From positions 177,642-209,641 of the forward strand of contig CAVOVW010000011.1 of assembly GCA_963699945.1 (NCBI GenBank): DNA of 32,000 bases. Reading direction: 5' to 3'. Positions 12,098-30,785 of the stretch are shown here, piece after piece; the stretch's first letter is position 1; each line of letters starts with the position of its first letter. The position numbers were made by a program, and so were the translations under genes. The notes under the pieces were generated by a model. The model ran no database searches and had not been told where the DNA came from. It saw nothing but the letters and a program-made list of their open reading frames with translations. This stretch comes from Terriglobia bacterium (GTDB taxonomy: Bacteria > Acidobacteriota > Terriglobia > Bryobacterales > Bryobacteraceae).

Positions 12098-13152
12098 GTG
12101 CGCATTATCAACGTGACTCGCGCCGCCACGCTTAAGTCCCTCGGTAAAATCAATCTCGATCTGCGGATCCTGCATCGCCGGGCAGACGGTTTTCACGAGC
12201 TGCGAACGGTGTTTCAAACCGTTTCGCTGGCCGACACCATCGACATTACATTTGAACCGGCGCGCAAGACCGAGATTGCGATCGAAGATTCGCTGAGCAT
12301 CCCGGATAATCTGGTGCTGCGGGCGGCGGAAGCGGCGCTCGACGCGATGAAGGTGCACGGGCGGGTCCGTTTCAAGCTGCGTAAACAGATTCCGATGGGC
12401 GCGGGAATGGGCGGCGGTTCCAGCAACGCGGCCGCGGTGCTGCTGGCGTTGCCGGTGCTGGCGGGGAAGAAGATCGCTTACGAAAAGCTGCTCGCGCTGG
12501 GAGCCGAACTGGGCAGCGACGTGCCGTTTTTTCTTAGCGGAGGAACCGCGGTGGCCATCGATCGGGGCACTGAGTTGTATGCGCTGCCGGATATAAAGGA
12601 AGAGCCGATTCTGGTGGTCGCCTCGGGGCTTCACGTCGCCACGGGACCCGCTTATCAAGCGCTGAATCGCGGTTTGACTTTGCCCGATTCGTCACGTAAT
12701 ATTAATGGTTTCCAGCTCTTCGTCCGGGCATTAGGGGACTTAGGCTCGGCGAGGGCGGCGAGTGCGTTCAGCGCGAACGATTTCGAGCCGGTCGTATTTA
12801 GCCAGCATCCCCAGCTTCAGGTCCTGTTCCAAAGGTTGCAGCGCGCGTCTTTAACCTTTTCGCGCCCGGCCGGGAACAGTGTGCGGCGAAAAGCCCGGCC
12901 CTCCTAAAAAAGGAAGGTGATGGAGCGAGGATGACAGGCAGCGGGTCGGCCTTGTTCGCGCTTTTCCGTTCTAAGGCGGAACGCGACCGCGTGGAAAAGA
13001 GTTTAGGGCGGGATCGGGAGTTCGAGGGAAGCCGGGTGATTCCGGCCAAACTGGTGAGCCGCGGGAGTTATCAGCGGCTCTGGCGGAAACAACTGGCCCC
13101 GCACGCAACAGCGGAAAAGATATGGCCGCCCCAAAGCCGGTACGCGCGATGA
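12098..13152 (+). pseudogene. ispE: 4-diphosphocytidyl-2-C-methyl-D-erythritol kinase, reading frame disrupted as given
   Basis: GHMP-kinase motifs KINLDLRILHRRADGFHELRTVFQTV and IPMGAGMGGGSSNAAAVLLAL are in frame 2, which stops at 12907. The conserved C-terminal MTGSGSALFALF continues in frame 1 (12931-13152). At least one frameshift lies between ~12840 and 12905. The stop overlaps the prs ATG (ATGA at 13149-13152). Confidence 0.85.
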
Positions 13153-14098
13153 GGTTCAACCACTTCAAGGTGTTCTCGGGCAACGCCAATCCCGCCCTGG
13201 CGGCGGAGATCTGCTACGAGCTGGGCTGCCAGTTGGCCGCCGTCAACGTCAAGCAGTTTTCCGACGGCGAAGTGCATCTGCAGATTCAGGAAAACGTGCG
13301 CGGGGCCGACGTTTTCGTGGTGCAGCCGACCTGCACGCCCGGTGGACCGGCACCTGATGGAATTGCTGCTGATGATGGACGCGCTGAAACGCGCCTCAGC
13401 GGAGCGCATCACGGCAGTGTTACCCTATTATGGGTATGCGCGGCAGGACCGTAAGGACCGTCCGCGTATGCCGATTTCGGCGCGTCTGGTGGCGAGTCTG
13501 CTGGAGCGCGCTGGAGCCAACCGCATTTTGGCGCTGGATTTACACGCAGCGCAGATTCAGGGCTTTTTCGATGTCCCGGTGGACCATTTATTTGCGGATG
13601 CCGGTGATGATCGAGTATTTCGAGGAGATGCGGCGGCGACAGGTTTGACGGTGGTGTCGCCCGATGCGGGCGGCGTGGAACGCGCGCGGGCGTTCGCCAA
13701 GCGGTTGGATTCGCCGCTGGCGATCATCGATAAACGGCGCACGGAAGTGAACGTGGCCGAAGTGATGCATATCATCGGCGACGTGGAAGGTCAGCATTGC
13801 CTGATCGTGGACGATTTGATCGACACGGCGGGTACGCTGGTGAAGGCGGCCGAGGCGCTGCTGAAGCAGGGCGCCAAATCGGTGCGGGCCTGTGCGACGC
13901 ATGCGGTGCTGTCGGGCCCGGCGGTGGAACGGATTGAGAATTCGGAGCTGAAGAAGTGATCGTGACGAACTCGATTCCTTTGCGCGGAAGAGGCCGAGGA
14001 TTGCAGCGCGGATCAAGCAGCTTTCGGTGGCGCCGCTGCTGGCGAAGGCGATTCAGTCGATCCACGAAGACGGTTCGGTAAGTACGTTATTTGTTTAG
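13149..14098 (+). pseudogene. prs: Ribose-phosphate pyrophosphokinase, about five frameshifts as given
   Basis: The conserved Prs sequence is recoverable only by frame hopping: [23 protein letters not shown] (frame 3); [58 protein letters not shown] (frame 1); [10 protein letters not shown] (frame 2); [37 protein letters not shown] (frame 1); VIVTNSIPL (frame 3); IKQLSVAPLLAKAIQSIHEDGSVSTLFV* (frame 2, stop 14096-14098). Confidence 0.9.
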
Positions 14099-14130
14099 TG
14101 ATTTTGTTCGGACGACGTGTGAAGGGATTT

Positions 14131-16831: not shown

Positions 16832-18484
16832 ATGGCAATCACCGAAGAACTGTTGCGCGATGCCGCCAGAGGGCGCGTCGGCGTCGACCAACGATTTCTT
16901 AAACTCATACTCGATCAAAACGATCCTGCCGGGATTCTGCGTTTCGCCGCGGAATCTCACGACGAACAGCAAAGCCGCGATTTCAAAATTGAGCTGGATC
17001 CGCTGCTGGCGGATCTTTTCCGCCACTACCGCACGCGCGTCGAGCCCGGCGCGGAGTTATCGGCGGACAATCTCGCGATCCTCGATTTCTATCTGGGGAT
17101 GGTGCGGCGCGCACCGGACGACGTGGACGACGGCGTCATTCAGGCGCTGCTCCCTTTTGGCAAACATGCCGTCGAACCCCTGCTAAAGCTATACCAGGAA
17201 CTGGGCGAGGAACAAGGATCGGACATTGCATTCGTGCTCGCTACGTTGCGCGCGCGCGATCCGCGCGTGCTCGCACTGTTGGTCGAGCGCCTGGAGTATG
17301 ACGCGGCCGACGGCGCATTTTGCCTGGGATTATATGGCGACCGCGCCGCTCGCGCGCCGCTCGAAAAAATGCTCGTGGAAATTTCGCCGGAAGACACCGA
17401 ACTGCGGCGCGAAATCAGCTACGCGATCGAGCAGCTTGACGCGCCCGATCCGCACTATGAACCCGAGGCGTTCGACGTTTACGTCGAATATCCCAAGCGC
17501 ACGCTGCCGCCGTTCGATGTGCTCGAGGAATCCGACCGGTTGGATCTACTGAAATCTTCCGACGCGGATGTACGCGCCGGGGCGGCCCATAGTTTCTTCA
17601 ATCAGGAATTGAGTGGGGCGGCGCGCAAGGGGCTTCTGGACGCGGCTCGTGCCGACGATGAGGCACCGGTGCGCGGGGAAGCATGGGCATCGCTTAGCGA
17701 CGCCGTGGGCAATGAGACAGGCGAGGCGAAGAAGCTTCGCGAAGAGATGATTGCCGTGCTTGATGATCAATCGCGCGCGGTGGAAGAGCGTGGCGGCGCG
17801 GCCGTAGGCCTGCACGCGGTCGCCGATCGCGACGATGTCCGCAAAGGGCTGGAGGCACTCTACGCGGAAGGCGGCAAGGGCCGCATTCGGGCTTTAGAAG
17901 CCATGTGGCGTTCGCTCCATCAGCCTTACGCGAAATTCTTCGCCAGTCATCTCGACATCGGCGTTGCCGAAAACGCAAACGCCGAAAATAAAGATCCACT
18001 GCTGCTGCGGCAGGCGCTGCGCGGCGCGGGATATTTCCGGATCACGTCGCAAATCGACAAAATCGCGACGTTCTTCGATGGCGAAGCGCCTTACGACGAT
18101 CTACGCGAAGATGCTCTATTCGCATACGCGCTCGCCATGCCTGGTGAGACGTCGCGCGGCCGCGTGAAAGGAATGCTGCGCAAGATCGACGATCTGGCGA
18201 ACCTCTCGGAAGACGAGACGGATTTGGTGGAGTTCGCGCTCGATGAACGTTTGCGCTTGCATGGTCTCGCGCCGGTATTTGAAGCCGAGCGCGCGGCGCA
18301 GCTTCACGAAGAAGAACACAGTCATGAAGGTCATGACCACAGCGGGCACAGCCATAATGGTCACGTTCATCATGACGAACACGCTGCGCCATCCTCAGCC
18401 GCAGCGCCGCAAGCCAAGTCGGGCCGCAACGATCCCTGCCCGTGCGGCAGCGGGAAAAAATACAAGAAGTGTCACGGCGCGTAA
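16832..18484 (+). CDS. SEC-C metal-binding-motif protein with helical-repeat body and His-rich segment
   Basis: 550 aa. C-terminus [20 protein letters not shown] is a SEC-C motif. It is preceded by [26 protein letters not shown]. The body is Ala/Leu/Asp/Arg-rich and helical-repeat-like. Confidence 0.7.
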
Positions 18485-20027: not shown

Positions 20028-20102
20028 GGCGCTATCGTCTAACGGTTAGGACGGAGCCCTCTCAAGGCTTAAATACGGGTTCGATTCCCGTTAGCGCTAC
20101 CA
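20028..20102 (+). tRNA. tRNA-Glu: tRNA-Glu (anticodon CUC), CCA encoded
   Basis: Hand-folded cloverleaf. Acceptor GGCGCTA/TAGCGCT (G1-U72 wobble). D arm GTCT-AACGGTTA-GGAC. Anticodon arm GAGCC-CT[CTC]AA-GGCTT. Variable loop AAAT. T arm ACGGG-TTCGATT-CCCGT. Discriminator A, then CCA. Confidence 0.9.
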
Positions 20103-20521
20103 ATTCCTCATACACTTACGGGCCGCAGGGCAGCACAGGGCAGCACGCGCATCGAAAATTATCGGGTTAGGGCTTGACGGCTAGAGGCTCGCAATCGAAG
20201 CGAAGGCCACTGGCTAGCGATTAAGAGTCTTGCATTCGAATGCTTGCGTTTTTCAACGGGGGGCCGCTGGGGATCGACGCGATCCGGATGCCCGGCGGGG
20301 CAAGACTCGTGGCGCTGGGCCGGTTTCAACTTGCGAGTGGCATGCCGCTTCGGCTACAAGCACCCCCTTTTTCCTGACCGCCCCGCGCGGGGCCTCGGGG
20401 ACTAAGCCTAAAGTAAAAGAGAGATTCGTGGGATCTGTTAGTCGCCCCATATATCCTAATATGATTGAAAACATGTTGGTTGTGGGCGACAATGTCAAGC
20501 AACCCGAGGGACGACAGGAAA

Positions 20522-21562
20522 ATGGCACATGCGCTGAATCTCGAGACAGCGGAGGAAGACTTTCGCAAAAACCTCGCCCGATCCATCCAGTCAGCCCACC
20601 TCAATTTTCTGATTGGATCGGGCGCCTCGTACCCGGCAATTCCCACAGCAGGCGCGGTGGAGGCAGAGATCGTCTCTCTCTTTGAAGCAGGCGACGAAGA
20701 CGGGGCCTATCTAAAGCTCTACGATTTCCTAGCTGCCATTCAAGTCCCGACCAATAGTTTGATCGTAGGCACCAGCGATATGGCGATCACCTCCACTGTG
20801 GCAAACTACACCGAGTACCTCGGCATTATCGAAGCCATCCTTCGAGAACGACGCACTTCGTTGTTGCCAAAGCAAGCTACCATCTTCACGACCAACTATG
20901 ACCTGTTTATTGAACAGGCGTCGCTTTCCTATCCCGCAATGCGGCTGAACGACGGCTTCAGCCGGGTGCCGAGCCTTTCGGGGCGAGCAGAATTTTCCTC
21001 GCGAACCTTCTTCACGTCGACTTCAAACACGGGGAATCTCTATAACTACAAGGTCGATATTCCCAGCATCAATTTGATCAAACTGCACGGCTCCCTATCT
21101 TGGAAGAAGGACGGGGACTGCGTACTGTTCTCCGTCCGGGACACGCCGCCTTTGGCAGCCGGAAAGACGGCGGCGGAGGTAAAGACATTCGTCGACGCCT
21201 ATGCGATGGTTTTGCCGGAAGCGAAGAAGTTCCACGCAACCTTGATGGACGGCACTTATTACGAACTTCTCCGGATTTTTAACAATGAGCTGGACCGCGA
21301 GGGAACGCTGCTCATTTCTTTTGGATTCTCCTTCGGTGACTCGCACATACTCGGCATCACCAAGCGCGCTCTGAAGAATCCAACCCTGAAGCTCGTCGCA
21401 TTCGCATTCAGCGAGACGGATCGGGAGAGCCTGCTGGAGCGATTTGATGGTTCAAACAACGTCGACATCATTGCGCCTGGCTCCGCCACAAACATCGACT
21501 TCGTTCGCTTCAATGCGGTGTTACGCAGCATCTTGCCGGACTTCAACGAGAAAACAAAATGA
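20522..21562 (+). CDS. SIR2-like (SIR2_2) NADase-type effector of a SIR2-HerA pair
   Basis: Motifs NFLIGSGASYP, IFTTNYDLFIEQA and IKLHGSLSW. I prefer the start MAHALNLE at 20522 (AGGAA 4 nt upstream) over the track start at 20465. The stop overlaps the herA ATG (ATGA at 21559-21562). Confidence 0.85.
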   Translation: MAHALNLETAEEDFRKNLARSIQSAHLNFLIGSGASYPAIPTAGAVEAEIVSLFEAGDEDGAYLKLYDFLAAIQVPTNSLIVGTSDMAITSTVANYTEYLGIIEAILRERRTSLLPKQATIFTTNYDLFIEQASLSYPAMRLNDGFSRVPSLSGRAEFSSRTFFTSTSNTGNLYNYKVDIPSINLIKLHGSLSWKKDGDCVLFSVRDTPPLAAGKTAAEVKTFVDAYAMVLPEAKKFHATLMDGTYYELLRIFNNELDREGTLLISFGFSFGDSHILGITKRALKNPTLKLVAFAFSETDRESLLERFDGSNNVDIIAPGSATNIDFVRFNAVLRSILPDFNEKTK

Positions 21563-23432
21563 GCGTAGCCAAGCTCACTCAGGACGCGGTTTTGAGAATC
21601 GGCGAGGTCGCGGGGGTCGATGGGCGAAAAATCTATGTGTTAGTGGACAAGAATAAGAATCTTTCCGACATGTTTTTCAATGGCGACATCCTCCGCAACA
21701 TCTCTGTCGAACAGCTATATCGAGATCCGCAAGGGTTTTCTAAGCCTGATCGGTCGCGTTGAAGGGGAAAAGATCGAGGAAGACTATCCCAGGCCACAGG
21801 TAAGGCATTCGAGACCCTGAACAGGAACAAGCGCGTTCTTACCGTGGCGCTCGCTGGATATTTAGACGAGCGCGGGATTTTCACCGGCGGGATGAAAGAG
21901 TTGCCGCTCATCGGGAACGAGGCCTACATCGTAACGCCTGAGAGAAGATCCGGCGCGTCCACAATCTTGTGCGCGAAGACGACTCTCCCGCTGTTGTGAT
22001 CGCCAGTATCGAAGGGCACGGTTTCGATATTGAGCTCCCCGTCGATGGATTGTTCAACAGTCACATCGCAATTTTTGGCAACACGGGTAGCGGTAAGTCC
22101 AATACCTTGGCATATCTCTATCAGGAATTTGTCCGCGTTCTGACTGAGCGAAATGCCGGAGCCTTCTCGGAGAACGCGCGCATTCTGATGCCTGGATTTC
22201 AACGGGGAATACGTCGGACCTCAATGCATAACACCCAACAAGAAAGTTTACAGTCTATCCACGCGACAGGATGGTGCCGACAAGATTCCGATGAACGATG
22301 ATGCTCTTCTGAACATCGAGGTTCTATCGATCCTCGCAGACGCGACCGAGAAAACACAGAAGCCCTTCTTAAGCCGGGCAGTCAAGTTCTATCGAAAAGT
22401 GATCGATGGAGACGACGGAGACCCCTCGGCATACCTGAAGAATGTCCTACGCGGCCGTGTTCGCGAAGTTCTGCAGATGAGCGATAAGTTACGGGCATTC
22501 CTGATCTTGGACTACTTCAGGGAAATATTGCCCAGCGAAAACGCGGAAGGCAATCCGGTTGATATCGCCTCCGATTTGGATTGGCACAACACATGCAGCG
22601 AATTCCGCATTCGGCCGAATGGCGCCTTCCTTGCGCAGAACCCTGCGAGCATTCCTGGCACGGTTCTCTATCAACACGTCGACACATTCCGGCTCGGAGA
22701 TAGTCTGCTCTCCACGCTCATCGTGTTTTTGTATTTGCAATTGATCTACGATCTTCTCGCGAATCGAGCCCAAAACGAGCACATAGCCCCCGTGATTAAC
22801 AGGTTGAAGGCAAAAAAAGGGGACATCGACAAGATTTTCGATATGGACAGCGATGCGCCGTTTTGGCAAAGGAACGTTGTCGTTGTCAGCCTGTCTGATG
22901 TCAATCTGGAGATGAAGAAGACCTTGCCACTGCTGCTGGCGAAGAAGCTCTACCGAGAGCAAAAGGAGACGGGACAAGGCGGGTGTCTCAGCATCGTGAT
23001 CGACGAGGCGCACAATATTCTTTCGACGGAGTCATTTCGCGAGGCGGAGAGTTGGAAGGATTATCGTCTGGAGACGTTCGAGGAGATCATAAAAGAAGGC
23101 CGCAAATTTGGCGTCTTTGTGACGATTGCCAGTCAACGGCCGAATGACATTTCACCAACGATCACCTCGCAAGCCCACAATTACTTCATCCACCGACTCT
23201 TGAACGAGCGCGATCTCAACGCCATCGCCAGCGCCGTCTCCTACATCGACCGGGTTACCGAGGAATCGATACCTACGTTGCCGACGGGAACCTGCATATT
23301 CAGTGGCATCGCGAGCCAGATCCCGTCAAAATCAATGTCAAGCCGCTGTTCGGGGCTGCCCGGCCGCAAAGCGAAACACGAAAATTCGGTGTCATTGTTC
23401 CCTCAACACGACGGGACGGCCACGAAAAATAG
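21559..23432 (+). pseudogene. herA: HerA-like (DUF87) hexameric ATPase partner of SIR2, five frameshifts as given
   Basis: N-terminal barrel segment RIGEVAGVDGRKIYVLVDKNKN..NISV / SYIEIRKGFLSLIGRVEGEKIEEDY / GKAFETLNRNKRVLTVALAGYLDERGIFTGGMKELPLIGNEAYIVTPE. Walker A is AIFGNTGSGKSNTLAYL. Walker B is LSIVIDEAHNIL. Also KEGRKFGVFVTIASQRPNDI. Frame changes occur at ~21710, ~21795, ~21945, ~22191 and ~23320. The true C-terminus (PVKINVKPLFGAARPQSETRKF..HEK*) ends at 23432. Confidence 0.85.
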
Positions 23433-23657
23433 GACGAGACTGTGTACGGCAAGTGAGTCTCCGTCGGTCCATTTCGAGCTGATCACTCAAACCAATTGGC
23501 GCAGAATTTTCGCACTTTAAGGCCCTATGCAAGGAGGCACTCTGTGTTCACGCAAGGTCCCACTTCGGTGCGACAGAGGTTCGCCGCGGTGTTCACACTT
23601 CATGATCGCCGCCTCTGTCCACCATCACTGGTATCGAAGCAAGGGGCTGCCTTCGTC

Positions 23658-24500
23658 CTACCCCACCAAGAGTATGTGAAGTAGCCGACGGCCTGCTTCC
23701 GTAATCGCCGGGGATTCTCTGAGAAGTTGAGTCGCGGAGACATCCTTCTCGATCTCGACGATGCGGCGAAGAGCAAAATCTCGGTCTATCTTGCTTTGGG
23801 CAGTGCGCGAAACTTGCTGCCACATCCACCGGAGGACGGAAAAAACGTAAATGCCGTGCAGGACGCCTTGTGTTGGCCGCGCCTGTTGTTTCCATGGCGA
23901 ATATACCGACCAGTTTGACTCGGAATTTACAAGCGGAAACAACTCCTCAAAAAGCGTGAGCTGCAAGTGCATCGTCTCGTGTATCAGGTTCTCAGCTACG
24001 CGCATGACAGAACTGCGATCGTTGCGATTCGGGGCGGAAATGAAAATAGAAAAAGGAATGGCGGGATCACTGAAGCTTGTGTCGTAATCATCGTCTTTCG
24101 CAATGATTATGTGGCAGCGCCACGCCAGTTCGGAAATGGCCGAGCATAAAAACGGATACGGCTCAATGACCTCCGAAACCGCGGCTTTCGCGAGCTCAAC
24201 GGCCTCACAACGGCGCACATCATCAGCGAGTTGAAGGCCACGTTCCGCCGCGTAACGTTGCAGTGCAGGACTGCTCGCTTCGATGAAGAGCAGCTTCCCG
24301 CTGCCGACGTGAATCGAGCTCAAAATTGAAGAATTCTGATCTGCCAAACCCGAGAGGAAGCGCTCCGTGGAGTAGGTTTCTCGAGTAAGCGAGTCACGCT
24401 CACGAAGCGTATGTTCGCGGCGCGAGCGGAGAATGGCCGACAGGGGCTTGATAGTTGGCGGAACAAGATCGGCGGGATTAAGCTCGGGAGCAGTCAGCAT
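23658..24500 (-). CDS. HExxH-motif protein of the type found beside rSAM/SPASM peptide maturases (putative alpha-KG-dependent peptide beta-hydroxylase)
   Basis: 280 aa, intact. Motif NLIHETMHLQLTLFE (H-E-T-M-H). The start overlaps the upstream 2OG oxygenase gene by 23 nt. Last gene of the minus-strand operon. Confidence 0.7.
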   Translation of the reverse strand: MLTAPELNPADLVPPTIKPLSAILRSRREHTLRERDSLTRETYSTERFLSGLADQNSSILSSIHVGSGKLLFIEASSPALQRYAAERGLQLADDVRRCEAVELAKAAVSEVIEPYPFLCSAISELAWRCHIIIAKDDDYDTSFSDPAIPFSIFISAPNRNDRSSVMRVAENLIHETMHLQLTLFEELFPLVNSESNWSVYSPWKQQARPTQGVLHGIYVFSVLRWMWQQVSRTAQSKIDRDFALRRIVEIEKDVSATQLLRESPAITEAGRRLLHILLVG

Positions 24501-25101
24501 AAAACGAAAACACCATCGTGTAGCGATCGCCTTTATGAACTTGACTTACCGCGTGATAGGATCCTTCGGAAATTTCGAAACCAAACCCTGACCGGCTGGT
24601 GGGAAGTATGACTTCATCCAGTGTTTCGACATCTGAGCCCCGAAATAGCATTAATAAGCCACCGTTTGCCTCATCCCACTCCCGGTTGAGCTGAATTATG
24701 AAGCGGTGGGTCTCGCCGTCCGGTCTTGCGTCATTGTGAATTCTGATTCTTTGCGTCTTATTCATCTTGTGTGCTGAGATGTCGACTTGTGGCTTTAGTG
24801 AAGCTCCTAGCAGCGCTCCAACGCTCTGTCGAAGTTGTCCAACCGTGGAATCGGACAATAGTGGCCTCAGATTCATAGGTAGGTTGACGTCTCGGAAGTC
24901 GAATTCGTATTGTTCGTAGAAATCCCTAAGGGCAAGTTGCCAGGGGGCTTCAGACTCGAACCACGACAGCAATGCTTGTTCGAGATCCTCGGAGACGACA
25001 GCTTCCGCTGTAAAGCAAGGAAAAGGCCGGGACCGAGATACGGCCGCGGAAAGATCAAGAGGGTTCACTGTACTCCCGGAGTATTCCGTGCATGTGGCCA
25101 A
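24478..25101 (-). CDS. 2OG-Fe(II) oxygenase superfamily protein (prolyl-hydroxylase-like fold)
   Basis: 207 aa, intact. Facial triad context RIRIHNDARPD (HxD) ... GGLLMLF ... SYHAVSQVHKGDRYTMVFSFY. Overlaps the rSAM 3' end; an alternative GTG start at 25068 would shorten the overlap. Confidence 0.8.
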   Translation of the reverse strand: MATCTEYSGSTVNPLDLSAAVSRSRPFPCFTAEAVVSEDLEQALLSWFESEAPWQLALRDFYEQYEFDFRDVNLPMNLRPLLSDSTVGQLRQSVGALLGASLKPQVDISAHKMNKTQRIRIHNDARPDGETHRFIIQLNREWDEANGGLLMLFRGSDVETLDEVILPTSRSGFGFEISEGSYHAVSQVHKGDRYTMVFSFYADCSRA

Positions 25102-26174
25102 TTACCAGCTGATAGTCGGCACAATAGATAGACGGATTTGCCAAGCCCGTCTTAGGATGCCATCTTGACAGTGGCATGCCACCTCCGCAAACGGGCAGTA
25201 ACGCACACTTTTGGCAAACGGGGCTGGTTGGATGCTGGAGCTCAGCGGAGCGCACGAACTCAGGCGAGGAAGAGATTTCGGAAAGCCGCGTATTCGAAAT
25301 AGACCACCCCTTCGCAAAACGATCGGCGCCATCGTACATGCTCTTCAGCGTGTCATTCTTTGTGATCGTTCCATCGGTGTCTATTACAGCAATGCCATAG
25401 GTTCTTTGTCCGCAGCCCTCCTTCACCGAGACTCCTCCCAACAAAAGCCGCCCCCAATCGTCAAGGATGCGGATACGCGGCGGATTCGGGTCGACGACAT
25501 AGCAATCCCAAATTGCGGCAAGCCAGCCTCCGTATTCTGTGGACTCAATTGCAGCCTTTCCAGGCGGGAGCTTCGCATAATTCCCGTCCTTGAAAAGGAA
25601 ATCGACGCTAGGAACAGCTAACGATTTGAAAAAACCGTAAATCCTCTGCGGATTCGAGGTTGGATCGACTACGCAGAGCGCCCCGGTCAGAAGCCGAGAG
25701 GCTTCTGGGTGTCGTCGAACACGATCAATCCCTGCGACAGCTCGCCCAAAGGTACCTTCGCCATTGAATGCAATACGAAAAGAATCGTGTACGTCTGCGG
25801 GACCGTCAATGCTAACGGAAAGGGTCGTATGGGTGCGGAGGCACAATTCGAGCAGGTCGTCATCGATAAGCGTTCCATTCGTCTGGATGGCCCGGCTGCA
25901 AGCCATAGGTAGGTGGTCAGCAAGACCCTGGAGCAGTGCGTGAAGAAGGTTTCGGGGAGGAGAAGGGTTCGCCCCCGTGAAGAATGACGGCAAATGGATG
26001 CTCCTGGTCCTCGTGTAACGCAGCCAGTTGCCGAATCACGTTCTCAACAGTGGAGGCGGACATGTGTTTGGGCATGCCCTGCCAACTCATATCGCCTTGC
26101 TGATAGACATAGCAGTAGCTGCAGTTAATGTTGCAGCGCGACGCCACCTTTAATAGGATTGTGTCGAGTTGCAT
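25055..26174 (-). pseudogene. FxsB-like radical SAM/SPASM peptide maturase (cyclophane-forming family), split by one frameshift in a G4/C4 run near 25954-25957
   Basis: N-terminus LKVASRCNINCSYCYVYQQGDMSWQGMP (CX3CX2C) ..AVILHGGEP. After a 1-nt shift it continues as RNLLHALLQGL..AIQTNGTLIDDDLLELC..LSVSIDGPADVHDSFR. C-terminal SPASM cysteines are CQKCALLPVCGGG...YCADY. Total length is 1120 nt, i.e. 3n+1. GAAGGA lies 6 nt upstream of the ATG. Confidence 0.88.
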
Positions 26175-26199
26175 GCCGGTCCTTCAGCTTGGTCGAGGC

Positions 26200-26394
26200 C
26201 TATCGGTTGTGGCGATTATGTGCGCGGTCGTATCCGTTCGCAATCGAAGAACCGTTCGCGGCTTCGTAGCGCACCTCGTCCATGAGCCGCTGGAGTGCGG
26301 CACTATCACGAAGCGGCTTTGGAAGCGGCGAGCGTTCGGACATCCGCTCCGATGTGGCCGTGTCTTTAGATCGTTCGGAAGAAACGTACTCCAT
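26200..26394 (-). CDS. Putative RiPP precursor peptide (64 aa), C-terminal core GYDRAHNRHNR
   Basis: Strong SD (AAAGGAG, 8 nt upstream of the ATG). Ends 25 nt upstream of the rSAM start. Acidic/Ser-rich leader with helix-like RDSAALQRLMDEVRYE. The C-terminus carries three aromatic-X-Arg triplets (YDR, HNR, HNR-COOH). Confidence 0.6.
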   Translation of the reverse strand: MEYVSSERSKDTATSERMSERSPLPKPLRDSAALQRLMDEVRYEAANGSSIANGYDRAHNRHNR

Positions 26395-26452
26395 TTAGCT
26401 ACTCCTTTGAATTGGCTCTATTGCAGCGTCTACGTAAAGTGAAACCTAGCCA

Positions 26453-26481
26453 AGTGTACCTTCTCGAACATAGAAAATCAA
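26453..26481 (-). promoter_or_regulatory. Putative sigma70-type promoter of the precursor-rSAM operon
   Basis: On the minus strand: TTGATT (26481-26476), 17 nt, TACACT (26458-26453). This is about 50 nt upstream of the precursor SD, in an AT-rich stretch. Confidence 0.35.
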
Positions 26482-26502
26482 CGAGACGCAAGGCATTTGA
26501 TA

Positions 26503-26823
26503 TCAGTAATATATAGAGCTCAAAAAAGCGATTCTTTCAACGATCAAATTTTGGCTACAAGACATGGGCGACAGAAGACCCCCGAGAACCTGATAATTCA
26601 CCATTCGCTTACATACCAGCGAGAAAATGTAATTGCGAGTATTCGGAATCTTCAGTTCGTCTATGCCTAGCGAGCATGATGGCGCGTCGAGTCTAACGCA
26701 CCAATGAGATACCATGGAGCCTGCGATGCGATTCTTTTGCATCGTTCTCGGGGCATTTTTGTCCCGGTCGACATTGTAGCGGTCCAAAATGCGCTTCAGC
26801 GTCCGCAATTGATAGTCTGACAA
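26503..26823 (-). CDS. Questionable 106-codon ORF in the AT-rich divergent intergenic region
   Basis: TTG start with no SD, no recognisable motif, atypical composition. Listed only because it is the sole long ORF in 26.4-26.85 kb. Confidence 0.2.
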   Translation of the reverse strand: MSDYQLRTLKRILDRYNVDRDKNAPRTMQKNRIAGSMVSHWCVRLDAPSCSLGIDELKIPNTRNYIFSLVCKRMVNYQVLGGLLSPMSCSQNLIVERIAFLSSIYY

Positions 26824-26847
26824 CTACCACAGGAGACTGTTTAATAC

Positions 26848-28215
26848 ATGTCCGGCGAGGCGAAACCATTTGATGCGATGCACTTCCGATCTCTGCGATT
26901 GGAGAATGTACGCGCCTTTGCCAGTTCGCAATCCCTTGAATTCGTGGACGAGTGCAACGCCGTCAGCCGCTGGAATCTGATTCTCGGAGAGAATGGGGTC
27001 GGCAAGACGACGTTGATGCAGGCTCTCGCAGTGATGCGTCCGATTCCAGCATTTGATGAGGCAGCGATCAAGGACTCCACTGATGCTGGGAATCCGACGT
27101 TGTCAAAGGCCGAACTTTCGACTCACGAAAACGACGAGATTGTTCGCTTTATCCGGCGAAATGGAAACGTGACGGCTACAATGGCGGCGGTTCTTGTGAC
27201 TGACAGTGGTGTCACGTTGGAGGTCGGAGTTGAGGCTAGTGGCACGACAAAAGAATTAAGAGATGTGCAATTCAGTGCGGCGCCCCATGAGCTCAAGTCG
27301 GAAGGTCCGTTAGTCATCGGCTACGGAGCTGGCCGCCATGTCGGTCATCGCAATCTCGCAGCCGTCGCATCTCGTGACGCCACGGCTTCTCTTTTTTCGG
27401 ATGCCATAGATCTGTATGACGCTGAAGAAATTATAGAAAAGCTGGACCACGCCGCGAAGAGCGATCCACTTGGGCCGCAAGGGCAGGATGCACTGCGGCT
27501 AAAGGCACTTACAACCGTCGTTGCGTCGTTGCTGCCGGATCTCACGCCCGAAGGTATTGAAATTCGTGGACCACGTATCGCTGGACGCGAGCCGGATCAA
27601 TGCGGCATTCACGTGCGAACGCCCTCCGGAGTGACGCCGCTTACGGATCTCAGCCTTGGTTACCAGGCAATGTTCGCTTGGACTGTCGATTTGGCTTGGC
27701 GGCTTTTCGACGCTTTTCCCCAAAGCTCCGAGCCTCTTCGCGAGAGCGCGATAGTACTCATTGACGAGGTCGATCTCCACTTACATCCTAGGTGGCAGAG
27801 AAAACTGCGTCGGCATCTGCTCGACCATTTTCCTAAGGTTCAGTTCATCGCGACCACTCATAGTCCGGTTACTGCTCAGGAGACGCTCTCAGAAGGCGGG
27901 ACCGTAGCGGTCGTACGGTGGACCGGTAGCGAAGCCCAGGTCCTGAATCGCCCAATCCCGAGGCGCGAGTGGCGTTATGATCAGCTACTAGCCAGCGAGC
28001 TCTTTGAGTTCGATTCCGATCGGAGCCAAGACGCCGAGGCGAAGCTCGGCGAACGATTATTGCTGATACGGAACACCAACCGCTCACCTCAGCAAGAGGC
28101 GCGCCTGCGGGAGTTGGATGAATTTGTTGCGTCTCTCCCCACTGCAAGCTCGCCGGGGGCACAGAGCTTCGAGGATCTGATGAAGGAATTCGTAAAGGAT
28201 ATTCGGAAGGTATAG
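26848..28215 (+). CDS. ptuA: PtuA-like AAA/ABC-type ATPase (Septu-like defence system)
   Basis: 455 aa, intact. Walker A is LILGENGVGKTTLMQAL. Walker B/D-loop region is IVLIDEVDLHLHPRWQRKLRRHLLDHFPKVQFIATTHSPV (AAA_15/21 architecture). AGGAGA lies 10 nt upstream of the ATG. Confidence 0.8.
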   Translation: MSGEAKPFDAMHFRSLRLENVRAFASSQSLEFVDECNAVSRWNLILGENGVGKTTLMQALAVMRPIPAFDEAAIKDSTDAGNPTLSKAELSTHENDEIVRFIRRNGNVTATMAAVLVTDSGVTLEVGVEASGTTKELRDVQFSAAPHELKSEGPLVIGYGAGRHVGHRNLAAVASRDATASLFSDAIDLYDAEEIIEKLDHAAKSDPLGPQGQDALRLKALTTVVASLLPDLTPEGIEIRGPRIAGREPDQCGIHVRTPSGVTPLTDLSLGYQAMFAWTVDLAWRLFDAFPQSSEPLRESAIVLIDEVDLHLHPRWQRKLRRHLLDHFPKVQFIATTHSPVTAQETLSEGGTVAVVRWTGSEAQVLNRPIPRREWRYDQLLASELFEFDSDRSQDAEAKLGERLLLIRNTNRSPQQEARLRELDEFVASLPTASSPGAQSFEDLMKEFVKDIRKV

Positions 28216-28219
28216 GACG

Positions 28220-28999
28220 GTGATCGCAATTCACAAGGGTCCTCCTCCATCTGGCCTTATTTCTGCCGGCGAGGAACATGCCAAACAGTTATGCGAGGCC
28301 TACGATGCAAATCCGGAGCGATATCAGACCAGATCGCATAGTTTGGAAATTCGCAGATCAATCTACGCAGCGGATGCAGTCAAGCAAGCGCTCGAGGCCT
28401 GCCATCACGGTAAGTGCTGCTATTGCGAGACCGTGATTCCAAAGCCCTACGCTCATTCTCATGTGGAACATTGGCGACCCAAATCGAGTTCTCGCCAGGG
28501 GGTGGGGGAAGAACCAATTTGGCCGGGATACTATTGGTTGGCCTATAGCTGGGATAACCTTTTGCTCAGCTGTTTTTTTTGCAACTCGAGTAACAAAAGC
28601 GACGTGTTTCCGATCGAGGATCCAGCGACACGCGCGAGACATCATCGCATGCGTATCGAGAACGAAATCCCGGCGATCCTGAAGCCAGATGGGAACGTGA
28701 ACCCTGCCGACCATATTACATTCCACATGGAAGTGCCAGAAGGTCTCACTGATCTTGGGCGCAAAACGATCGAGGTTCTGGGTCTTGACAGCCCGGCGCA
28801 CGAGTTGCGCCTGAGACGTTTGGAAGAGCTTCGCCAAGCCCGACAAATGTCCATTGATCTGATGCATAACTCGGATTCTGGCTCCCAAAAATGGACAGTC
28901 CTCTGGCGGACTTTTGTGGAAGTAGCGACACGGCCCGATATGCCCTATAGCGCGATGGCGGCGGCGTTCCTCGCCGCCAATCCCTTGCCTGAATTCTGA
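28220..28999 (+). CDS. ptuB: PtuB-like HNH endonuclease (TIGR02646-type)
   Basis: 259 aa, intact. HGKCCYCE...HVEHWRPKS...YWLAYSWDNLLLSCFFCNSSNKSDVFP (CxxC/H/N/CN..K HNH core). GTG start 4 nt after the ptuA stop, with AGGACG upstream. Confidence 0.8.
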   Translation: MIAIHKGPPPSGLISAGEEHAKQLCEAYDANPERYQTRSHSLEIRRSIYAADAVKQALEACHHGKCCYCETVIPKPYAHSHVEHWRPKSSSRQGVGEEPIWPGYYWLAYSWDNLLLSCFFCNSSNKSDVFPIEDPATRARHHRMRIENEIPAILKPDGNVNPADHITFHMEVPEGLTDLGRKTIEVLGLDSPAHELRLRRLEELRQARQMSIDLMHNSDSGSQKWTVLWRTFVEVATRPDMPYSAMAAAFLAANPLPEF

Positions 29000-29572: not shown

Positions 29573-30785
29573 TTATTGGAGATTTCTCGCCGAGTGACCT
29601 TCCGCTCCCCGCCGCTGAAATTCGTCCCATCGCAGCGCTGCCTCATCGTCCTGGCCTTTGATCGCGTGGGCGTACACGTCCGCTGTTGTCCGCACAGATG
29701 AGTGCCCCAAACGTTCGGACACTACCGGCAGCGGCACGCCGTGCGCTAGCAAGTGCGATCCGTGGCTATGACGCATGGAGTGGAGACTCGCGCCTTTGGG
29801 AAGATCGAGGCGGCGAAACAGCAACGAAACTGCTGATGACACCGAATTCGGGCGCAGCGGTGCGCCGTCCGGGTTGGTGAAGATCAAATCCAGATCAGCC
29901 CGATAGGTAGATCCGAATTCACAGCGAAACTTATTTTGCTGTGCGCGATGGACCTGGAGAGCCGCCAGCGCTGACGCCGGAATTTTGAGATCCCGCGGCC
30001 TCTCTGTTTTCGTATCCTTAAATTCCAACACTTGCCTCGTTTGCGTGATCGATCGCGAAATAACGGCACGGCCATCCTGAATGTCCGACCACCGCAGCGC
30101 GAGCAGTTCACCACGCCGTGCGCCCGTGGCCGCGGCGACTTCGAGAAATGTCGCCATGCACCACGGACCAGTTGCCGACTCGAAAACCAAAACCTGTTGC
30201 GCCGGAGTGAGCGCGATGCCTCGATGCTTCTTCGGAACGGGCGGCTCGCTATATGTCACCGGGTTGTCACCAACTAGACCCCATCGCTTAGCACGCCCGA
30301 ATGCGGACGATGTGAGACCGGCGATGTGCCGGACCGTTTTCCGGCTGAGGGGCCGGGCTTCCTTGGTCTTGCGAGTGTGGCCACCAGATTTCAGAAGCCG
30401 GTTCCATTCGCGGCTCAAATGGAGCGGCGTGATTTCTCCGAGCGGCATGGCCAGCAATTCCGGGGCGAGGTAGGCCGCCAGTTCCCGGTAACGCTCGACG
30501 GTTTCGGCGCAGCTTCTCTTCGGCGTGCTGGCGAAAGAATTCCTGGAATAGCATCGCTAGTGTGGTGGGCAGCGCCGCCGCGATCGTACTACCGCCGCGC
30601 TTGGCGAGTTCGAACTTTTGCAGTTCCTCTGCGCGGCGCTTCGCCTCGGCGTCGATCGCTTCCTGCTTGCTGGCGAACCCGACTTCACCGACCAGTCGGC
30701 GATTTTCACGGGTCGCGCCCGGCCCACTAAATAGGTAGCGCCAAACCGTCTTACCCGATTCGTATTTTCGTTTGAAAACCGGCAT
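29573..30785 (-). pseudogene. int: Tyrosine recombinase/phage-type integrase, frameshifted near 30495-30510
   Basis: The N-terminal arm-binding part MPVFKRKYESGKTVWRYLFSG..VGFASKQEAIDAEAKRRAEE..FQEFFRQHAEEKL is in one frame. ..TVERYRELAAYLAPELLAMPLGEITPLHL.. and the catalytic domain (ATGARRGELLALRWSDI; LHSMRHSHGSHLL; LGHSSVRTTADVYAH) are in another. Confidence 0.9.

Follow-up and report, generated by a model that had tools for sequence, protein, structure and literature searches.

Does a peptide-modifying gene cassette that stands beside a phage-defence gene pair belong to that pair, or does it only share its neighbourhood? This question is raised by a 32,000-nucleotide stretch of DNA from a Terriglobia bacterium (Acidobacteriota; assembly GCA_963699945.1, contig CAVOVW010000011.1), the whole of which is referred to here as the window. 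A preliminary description of the window had noted four co-oriented genes, an observation that was confirmed (positions 23658-26394, minus strand), and had read them as an undescribed operon for a peptide made by ribosomes and modified after translation (RiPP), embedded between the defence systems SIR2-HerA and Septu. As judged from sequence comparison across genomes, the four genes (yhhA, yhhB, yhhC and the gene of a HExxH protein) and the two Septu genes ptuA and ptuB are inherited, rearranged and diverging as one compact six-gene unit with a dedicated Septu lineage.

Identity of the four genes and the predicted product

Searches with hidden Markov models, a check that had been proposed for this locus, assigned the proteins to their families far beyond chance, and the curated models for YhhA, YhhC and mod_HExxH were passed. 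All four genes lie on the minus strand. The first, yhhA (26200-26394), encodes a 64-aa precursor that scored 49.2 bits against NCBIfam model NF041705 (cutoff 36). The second, yhhB (25055-26174, read in the two frames 25917-26174 and 25055-25993), encodes a cyclophane-forming radical S-adenosylmethionine (rSAM)/SPASM maturase, and the third, yhhC (24478-25101), a 2-oxoglutarate (2OG)-Fe(II) oxygenase of the Asp/Asn beta-hydroxylase type, with 228.4 bits against NF041706 (cutoff 150). The fourth (23658-24500) encodes a 280-aa peptide hydroxylase of the alpha-ketoglutarate (alphaKG)-HExxH type, with HETMH at residues 174-178 and 105.7 bits against TIGR04267 (mod_HExxH; cutoff 40). The two fragments of YhhB scored 104.3 bits (model positions 1-69) and 318.5 bits (positions 76-367) against NF041707, which has a cutoff of 445; after repair of the frame the score was 441.7 bits, 3 bits under the cutoff, and the match was collinear with positions 1-367 of the 369 positions of the model. 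The repaired protein is 80% identical to intact homologs, and homologs with 72-77% identity carry the name YhhB at NCBI. The rSAM protein, which had been called FxsB-like, appears to be of the YhhB type instead: FxsB (TIGR04269) was only its next-best model, with 276.4 bits against a cutoff of 370, and the precursor does not have the FxSxx-COOH end.

The motifs read earlier from the sequence were all present, namely CNINCSYC and the SPASM cysteines of the rSAM protein, H122-N-D124...H183 of the oxygenase and H174-E-T-M-H178 of the HExxH protein, in columns conserved in at least 93% of homologs. Conservation among homologs was seen for R193 of YhhC in addition to the H122, D124, H183 triad, and for H174, E175, H178 and H215 of the HExxH protein, whose nearest solved relative is ChlH (8s5f; phmmer E=9e-14). 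The C-terminal core of YhhA, G-YDR-A-HNR-HNR, matches the family consensus, and its leader reads ...AALQRLMDEVRYE..., the leader of homologs carrying ...LARLIEEVRNE.... Across 79 YhhA homologs the core Y-(D/N)-R-x-(H/Y)-N-R-H-N-R was near-invariant (Y 99%, H 90%).

According to the literature on this pathway, YhhB forms crosslinks from Tyr-C3 and from His-C2 to the Arg beta-carbon two residues further along (PMC11002830, PMC11499958), the product of YhhC is erythro-beta-hydroxy-Asp (PMC12186529), and both activities were established by heterologous expression in E. coli (cited in PMC11002830, PMC12186529, PMC11499958). Enzymes of the alphaKG-HExxH type act on pre-formed cyclophanes, where they hydroxylate Asp or His; oxidative backbone cleavage is carried out by some of them (PMC12636437). 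The predicted product of the window genes is a tri-cyclophane, hydroxylated peptide with the core YDR-A-HNR-HNR. The earlier reading, a triceptide-type RiPP operon that combines a cyclophane-forming rSAM/SPASM enzyme with a 2OG oxygenase and an alphaKG-HExxH protein, is upheld by the matches to curated models. The locus is almost certainly a triceptide cassette of the YhhABC type to which an alphaKG-HExxH hydroxylase is added. The cassette is not undescribed, as had been claimed, but corresponds to the known YhhA/YhhB/YhhC family, which has NCBIfam equivalog models and whose genes RefSeq already names yhhA, yhhB and yhhC.

Coupling of the cassette to ptuAB

A search with a YhhB alignment gave 80 species-representative loci from about nine phyla, the best 80 of 176 genome hits; at the protein level, YhhB homologs numbered 3,089 at E<=1e-20. 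When these loci were compared by tblastn with the window proteins, a match to YhhC was found in 79/80, to the HExxH protein in 75/80 and to YhhA in 70/80. PtuA and PtuB were found beside yhh in 46 of the 80 loci, and PtuA in 33 of the 57 loci with adequate flanks; a SIR2 or HerA match near yhh was found in none of the 80. Counting the neighbours of homologous clusters, as had been suggested, identified the defence genes ptuA and ptuB as recurrent beside yhh. Comparative genomics speaks for the proposed link to phage defence. The picture of a cassette embedded between two systems was not retained, as SIR2-HerA is incidental; the same count ruled out this pair as a part of the unit. Septu had been described as a separate flanking system, and it was found instead to be the conserved partner of the cassette, by its frequency, by its four arrangements and by its own PtuA clade.

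Loci linked to ptuAB came from Acidobacteriota, Pseudomonadota, Chloroflexota, Bacteroidota, Binatota, Nitrospirota, Gemmatimonadota, Entotheonella and a metagenome-assembled genome labelled Patescibacteria. All-against-all clustering of the 1,415 open reading frames (ORFs) within +-10 kb showed that, besides the yhh genes, the only families present in more than 7 loci were PtuA (44) and PtuB (41). The ptuAB genes were convergent after the HExxH gene in 29 loci, divergent before yhhA, as in the window, in 7, and co-directional in two further arrangements (5 and 3 loci). In 30 convergent loci the stop codons of the HExxH gene and ptuB were a median of -14.5 nt apart, which means a tail-to-tail overlap, and in one co-directional locus (L045, from Cupriavidus ulmosensis CV2) the HExxH gene and ptuA overlapped by 4 nt. 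Nitrosomonas oligotropha and Hymenobacter likewise have compact loci with all six genes. Pairwise distances of YhhB and PtuA were correlated (r=0.75, with 0/2000 permutations as high), similar to those of PtuA and PtuB (0.77).

In the window, ptuA (26848-28215, plus strand), encoding the Septu ABC/SMC-type ATPase, is divergent from yhhA and scored 489.3 bits against PADLOC model PDLC00304. It is followed 4 nt downstream, in the same direction, by ptuB (28220-28999, plus strand), encoding the Septu HNH nuclease, with 265.5 bits against PDLC00339. The Walker A, signature, Walker B and H-loop motifs of PtuA are invariant, and C66, C67, E83, H84, N113 and N122 of PtuB are conserved. A PtuA alignment was searched against metagenomes and returned both Yhh-linked and stand-alone pairs. 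With very distant ATPases left out, 45 PtuA proteins were split from 14 stand-alone PtuA proteins in 184 of 200 neighbour-joining bootstraps; of these 45, 44 were Yhh-linked and the contig of the remaining one ended 316 nt after ptuB. The PtuA of the window falls in this Yhh-linked clade. For the stand-alone sister clade, ptuA and ptuB were the only genes common to its loci.

Several points weigh against a dedicated six-gene unit. The loci analysed are the best-scoring part of the YhhB hits, about 40% of the yhh loci are without ptuAB, and in a few no partner is apparent. The distance correlation may partly mirror the shared phylogeny of the organisms. All trees are neighbour-joining trees, in which the inclusion of very distant ATPases lowered support to 50-55%, an instability that is mostly one of outgroup placement. 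No clade-specific insertion or residue pattern was found in Yhh-linked PtuA relative to stand-alone PtuA, unlike the case of retron-associated PtuA, and this absence speaks slightly, if at all, against a direct physical co-option. Finally, yhhB of the window is out of frame as assembled.

The association might also reflect two independent functions that travel together, the Yhh peptide being an ordinary natural product (an antibiotic, a signal or a metal binder) and Septu a self-contained defence pair that sits on the same mobile islands or stabilises the cassette. Random island neighbours would vary, however, and here no neighbour but a single PtuAB clade recurs over about nine phyla. The adjacency persists through four arrangements with overlapping stop codons, and even the reading frames overlap in one locus. 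No transporter, protease, exporter or immunity gene was conserved near yhh among the recurrent families of the 80 loci (+-10 kb), and a near-invariant core peptide is unusual for antagonistic RiPPs. On the other side stand the two-gene composition of the sister-clade pairs, which have no third gene, the Yhh-linked PtuA without extra elements, the occurrence of yhhABC without ptuAB, and flanks that are often mobile or defence regions. Taken together, independent functions are considered rather unlikely, and an evolutionary coupling of the yhh cassette and ptuAB very probable, as far as this can be read from sequences.

Partners other than ptuAB

In loci without ptuAB, the slot after the HExxH gene was occupied by a membrane-anchored protein with a transmembrane segment and coiled-coil/HEAT repeats (7 loci), by a Sel1 plus DUF2971 protein (6 loci; a DUF2971-only protein in L069), by an NsnB-like AAA_15/DUF3696 ATPase together with a 170-aa ORF (2 loci), or by a methyltransferase-like ORF (2 loci). 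Genes in this alternative slot were located at 12585-13958 (minus) of L007, 12551-14740 (minus) of L009, 10565-12510 (minus) of L010, 10676-11698 (minus) of L069 and 12529-13143 (plus) of L074. The 170-aa ORF beside the ATPase looks PIN-like by eye, and the DUF2971 model gave no match when compared with PDB folds. The genes flanking the module were variable and included integrases, transposases, SIR2, prokaryotic Argonaute, Dsr2, Kiwa, type I restriction-modification and housekeeping genes.

In two Hymenobacter loci (L058 and L077; 6526-7788, minus strand), a second, very divergent PtuA-like ATPase was observed upstream of yhh, together with two conserved ORFs of about 350 and 177 aa; these loci also have the convergent ptuAB next to the cassette. 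Clusters of the yhh type were also seen on conjugative plasmids of Vibrio echinoideorum (p1; L162), Novosphingobium (pLA4; L163) and Rhizobium etli (pRetMIM1e; L164). The Vibrio plasmid carries yhhABC without the HExxH gene, with two DUF2971 genes 2.5-4 kb off. The other two plasmids, both alphaproteobacterial, carry a more distant 711-aa YhhB fusion with GNAT and glycosyltransferase genes, by Piwi/SMEK genes or by an AAA-ATPase and HNH pair. A scan of viral contigs for YhhB found none.

Possible function of the unit

The unit appears, on balance, to be a RiPP-coupled Septu-type conflict or anti-phage system, a role suggested by the company that its genes keep. A peptide that is invariant and apparently unexported, and whose conflict-type partners can be swapped, is reminiscent of a signal or guard module connected to effectors. 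Type I-A retrons show that a biosynthetic module of an unrelated kind can take control of PtuAB (PMC12819146, PMC12673091). By analogy, it is tentatively proposed that the modified YhhA peptide may regulate PtuAB. The peptide would stay inside the cell and would modulate the PtuA ATPase or the PtuB HNH nuclease, whether by activating them or by serving as a guard or antitoxin-like ligand, in a manner comparable to the control that the reverse transcriptase (RT) and multicopy single-stranded DNA of a type I-A retron exert on its PtuAB. Supply of the peptide would need translation, S-adenosylmethionine, iron, 2OG and O2, so that a falling supply could report takeover of the cell by a phage. In other genomes, the peptide module is paired with different partners in the slot of ptuAB. 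No more firmly held is the wider proposal, in which the tri-cyclophane YhhA might be an integral intracellular immune component that restrains or activates the PtuAB nuclease, and that is also read by interchangeable effectors (the membrane HEAT-repeat protein, the Sel1-DUF2971 protein, or the AAA_15 ATPase with its small partner).

The nature of these partners also bears on whether the product could be a peptide-derived cofactor or metal ligand, comparable to pyrroloquinoline quinone (PQQ), mycofactocin or the bufferins, with a housekeeping-type chemistry to which the nuclease genes would be irrelevant. An invariant C-terminal core made by a SPASM-type rSAM enzyme, the lack of an exporter and a His/Arg-rich sequence that could bind metals would all agree with this, and PQQ and mycofactocin are precedents of cofactors made by rSAM/SPASM enzymes (PMC10114670). 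The recurrent partners, however, are all of conflict type or without known function (an ATPase with a nuclease, repeat proteins, DUF2971), no oxidoreductase and no other enzyme that would use a cofactor is conserved near yhh, and the distribution is patchy and mobile, with plasmids and islands at tRNA genes. A cofactor role is regarded as very improbable.

If the peptide does serve as an immune ligand, it would be the first RiPP immune regulator, and triceptides would gain a biological role. A conserved, cross-phylum union of RiPP and Septu genes would give a testable function for a whole RiPP family, and suggests that modified peptides could act as internal immune signals or guards. At present, tools that mine biosynthetic gene clusters and tools that find defence systems each annotate only half of the unit.

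The frameshift in yhhB

The break in yhhB lies at 25954-25967 (minus strand), where two C runs (25965-25967 and 25954-25957) each seem to be one C short. The window reads gaaCCCttctcctCCCCgaaac at this point, and the third frame between the two runs still encodes LLLP. In intact YhhB homologs, which are up to 80% identical, this segment is always HGGEPLLLPRN(I/L)L, and the addition of one C to each run restores the homolog sequence exactly. A similar pattern was found in the housekeeping gene prs (ribose-phosphate pyrophosphokinase; 13122-14100, plus strand), downstream of an ispE-like kinase gene, which contains three 1-nt frameshifts (about 13338, 13955 and 14000). Every prs fragment retains the canonical Prs motifs. 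As an essential gene is broken three times with its motifs intact in all fragments, clustered indel errors in the assembly are indicated.

It could be argued that the cassette is a decaying remnant in this genome, with yhhB and the neighbouring herA as real pseudogenes and no product made, which would be compatible with the other explanations. The out-of-frame yhhB, the splitting of herA into at least four frames, and the clustering of the breaks instead of an even spread (of nine or more counted, six lie inside an island of about 10 kb) agree with decay. The clustered 1-nt errors in prs, with its motifs kept, are explained by the assembly. In yhhB, one base is missing from each of two C runs that lie 8 nt apart, the conserved LLLP is still encoded between them, and the gene has no stop codons, has lost no catalytic residues and is 80% identical to intact homologs. 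Decay is unlikely, and the yhhB break is probably a sequencing or assembly artefact. An exact-sequence look-up of the HExxH and PtuA proteins of the window found no independent copy of the genome.

Operon layout and intergenic region

The gene spacing was as stated in the preliminary description, with a 25-nt gap followed by overlaps of 47 and 23 nt. The 47-nt overlap of yhhB and yhhC follows from a TTG start; if YhhC begins instead at the GTG at 25068, which is likely to be the true start, it is a 196-aa protein similar to the homologs. The promoter that had been proposed 5' of yhhA, a promoter-like element read from the sequence (TTGATT-N17-TACACT; 26453-26481, minus strand), held in part: the block is conserved in the acidobacterial relatives L001-L005, but only 8 of 12 consensus positions are matched and the element falls below the scan threshold. 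In a sixth relative, L161, the block is visible only up to TTGATTATCT, where the extracted coordinates end.

In these relatives, the divergent ptuA-yhhA intergenic region (26395-26847) contains the conserved blocks CTTGATTATCTATGTTCGAAAG-ACGTACACTTGGCT, which is the element just described, and, closer to ptuA, CTCGCAGGCAC-ATGGTATCGCAT. The two blocks may be divergent promoters or an operator. A conserved block at 26705-26722, ATGGTATC(G/T)CAT as read on the minus strand, lies about 125 nt upstream of ptuA, is kept in the window, L001-L005 and L161, and may be a ptuA promoter or operator. Inside the intergenic region there is also a 106-aa ORF (26503-26823, minus strand). It is unlikely to be a real gene, since at protein-coding scale the relatives align poorly here and only short promoter-like blocks are kept.

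Surroundings in the window

Read along the window, SIR2 and a fragmented HerA come upstream of the cassette, and the divergent ptuAB and then a tyrosine recombinase come downstream. SIR2 is intact (369.5 bits). The SIR2-HerA pair occupies 20465-23520 (plus strand), and HerA, with at least four frameshifts, is spread over at least four frames (21559-21762, about 21760-21970, 21969-22301 and 22291-23520), its C-terminus being again out of frame; the largest piece scored 382.9 bits. A tRNA-Glu(CTC) gene (20028-20102) is followed by a stretch of about 10 kb with lower GC content (0.51-0.56 compared with about 0.60), which ends at the tyrosine recombinase gene (29573-30457). The SIR2-HerA pair, the yhh cassette and ptuAB all lie in this stretch, which has the look of an integrated island. 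A search for direct repeats of the attachment-site type bracketing the island gave nothing convincing, and an Rfam scan of the window returned only the tRNA-Glu. Outside the island, a 550-aa ORF (16832-18484, plus strand) has a C-terminal SEC-C motif as its sole Pfam match.

Comparison with known systems

What appears to be new at this locus is the coupling of Septu to an already known RiPP pathway; the RiPP cassette itself is not new. With the YhhABC triceptide pathway of the Morinaka laboratory (cited in PMC11002830, PMC12186529, PMC11499958), the window shares the Y-x-R/H-N-R precursor C-terminus, the YhhC-type oxygenase and the gene order A-B-C, and its maturase is of apparent YhhB type. 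The family of the window differs by a fourth conserved gene, that of the alphaKG-HExxH hydroxylase (75 of 80 loci). Coupling to ptuAB is not mentioned in the accessible literature on the pathway, and the accessible triceptide literature, in which chemistry is what was studied, assigns no biological role. In whole-word searches of 8 million open papers, none was found that connects SPASM, triceptide or HNH-triceptide with Septu or PtuA; an earlier passing mention in the primary Yhh paper is possible. PADLOC-DB 2.0 gave no match for YhhB (C-terminal fragment) or the HExxH protein and only a generic 2OG match of 29.8 bits for YhhC, and NCBIfam has no model for the Yhh-linked ATPase or nuclease.

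The FxSxx-COOH system consists of FxsA and FxsB with a HExxH protein, the TIR-like FxsC and a tetratricopeptide repeat/NTPase protein. It has in common with the window a cyclophane-forming rSAM enzyme of the FxsB superfamily and a HExxH enzyme beside immunity-type proteins, and differs in the precursor motif and the partner proteins. The rSAM protein of the window fits YhhB (441.7 bits) far better than FxsB; membership of the FxSxx-COOH system was considered and rejected, with FxsB at 276.4 bits against the TIGR04269 cutoff of 370 and a precursor that ends in HNRHNR. The alphaKG-HExxH beta-hydroxylase ChlH of the ChlBH type belongs to the same HExxH domain family (TIGR04267) and acts on cyclophane-containing peptides, and the HExxH protein of the window stands alone, unfused to an rSAM domain, in contrast to ChlBH.

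Two settings are known for Septu, namely a two-gene system that stands alone and the effector part of type I-A retrons. The PtuA and PtuB of the window match the Septu models strongly, with ATPase and HNH motifs intact and the genes adjacent; what sets them apart is their distinct PtuA/PtuB lineage, which is beside the yhh cassette in every locus with readable flanks. Assignment of the window to a type I-A retron was tried and rejected: yhhA is next to ptuA with no RT gene between them, the only Rfam match is the tRNA, and the NF041760 and NF041761 scores were 111.5 bits (cutoff 500) and 49.9 bits (cutoff 150). The PtuA proteins of these retrons (Ec78/Eco7, Ec83) are nevertheless the closest solved relatives of the window PtuA. 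The third module of the window is a RiPP pathway, not an RT and non-coding RNA, no retron-style insertions were detected in its PtuA, and sequestration by the peptide is an analogy only. The systems share a Septu-type pair joined to an unrelated biosynthetic module with a non-protein-like product, and the union of RiPP and Septu genes would be the second case of Septu co-opted by such a module.

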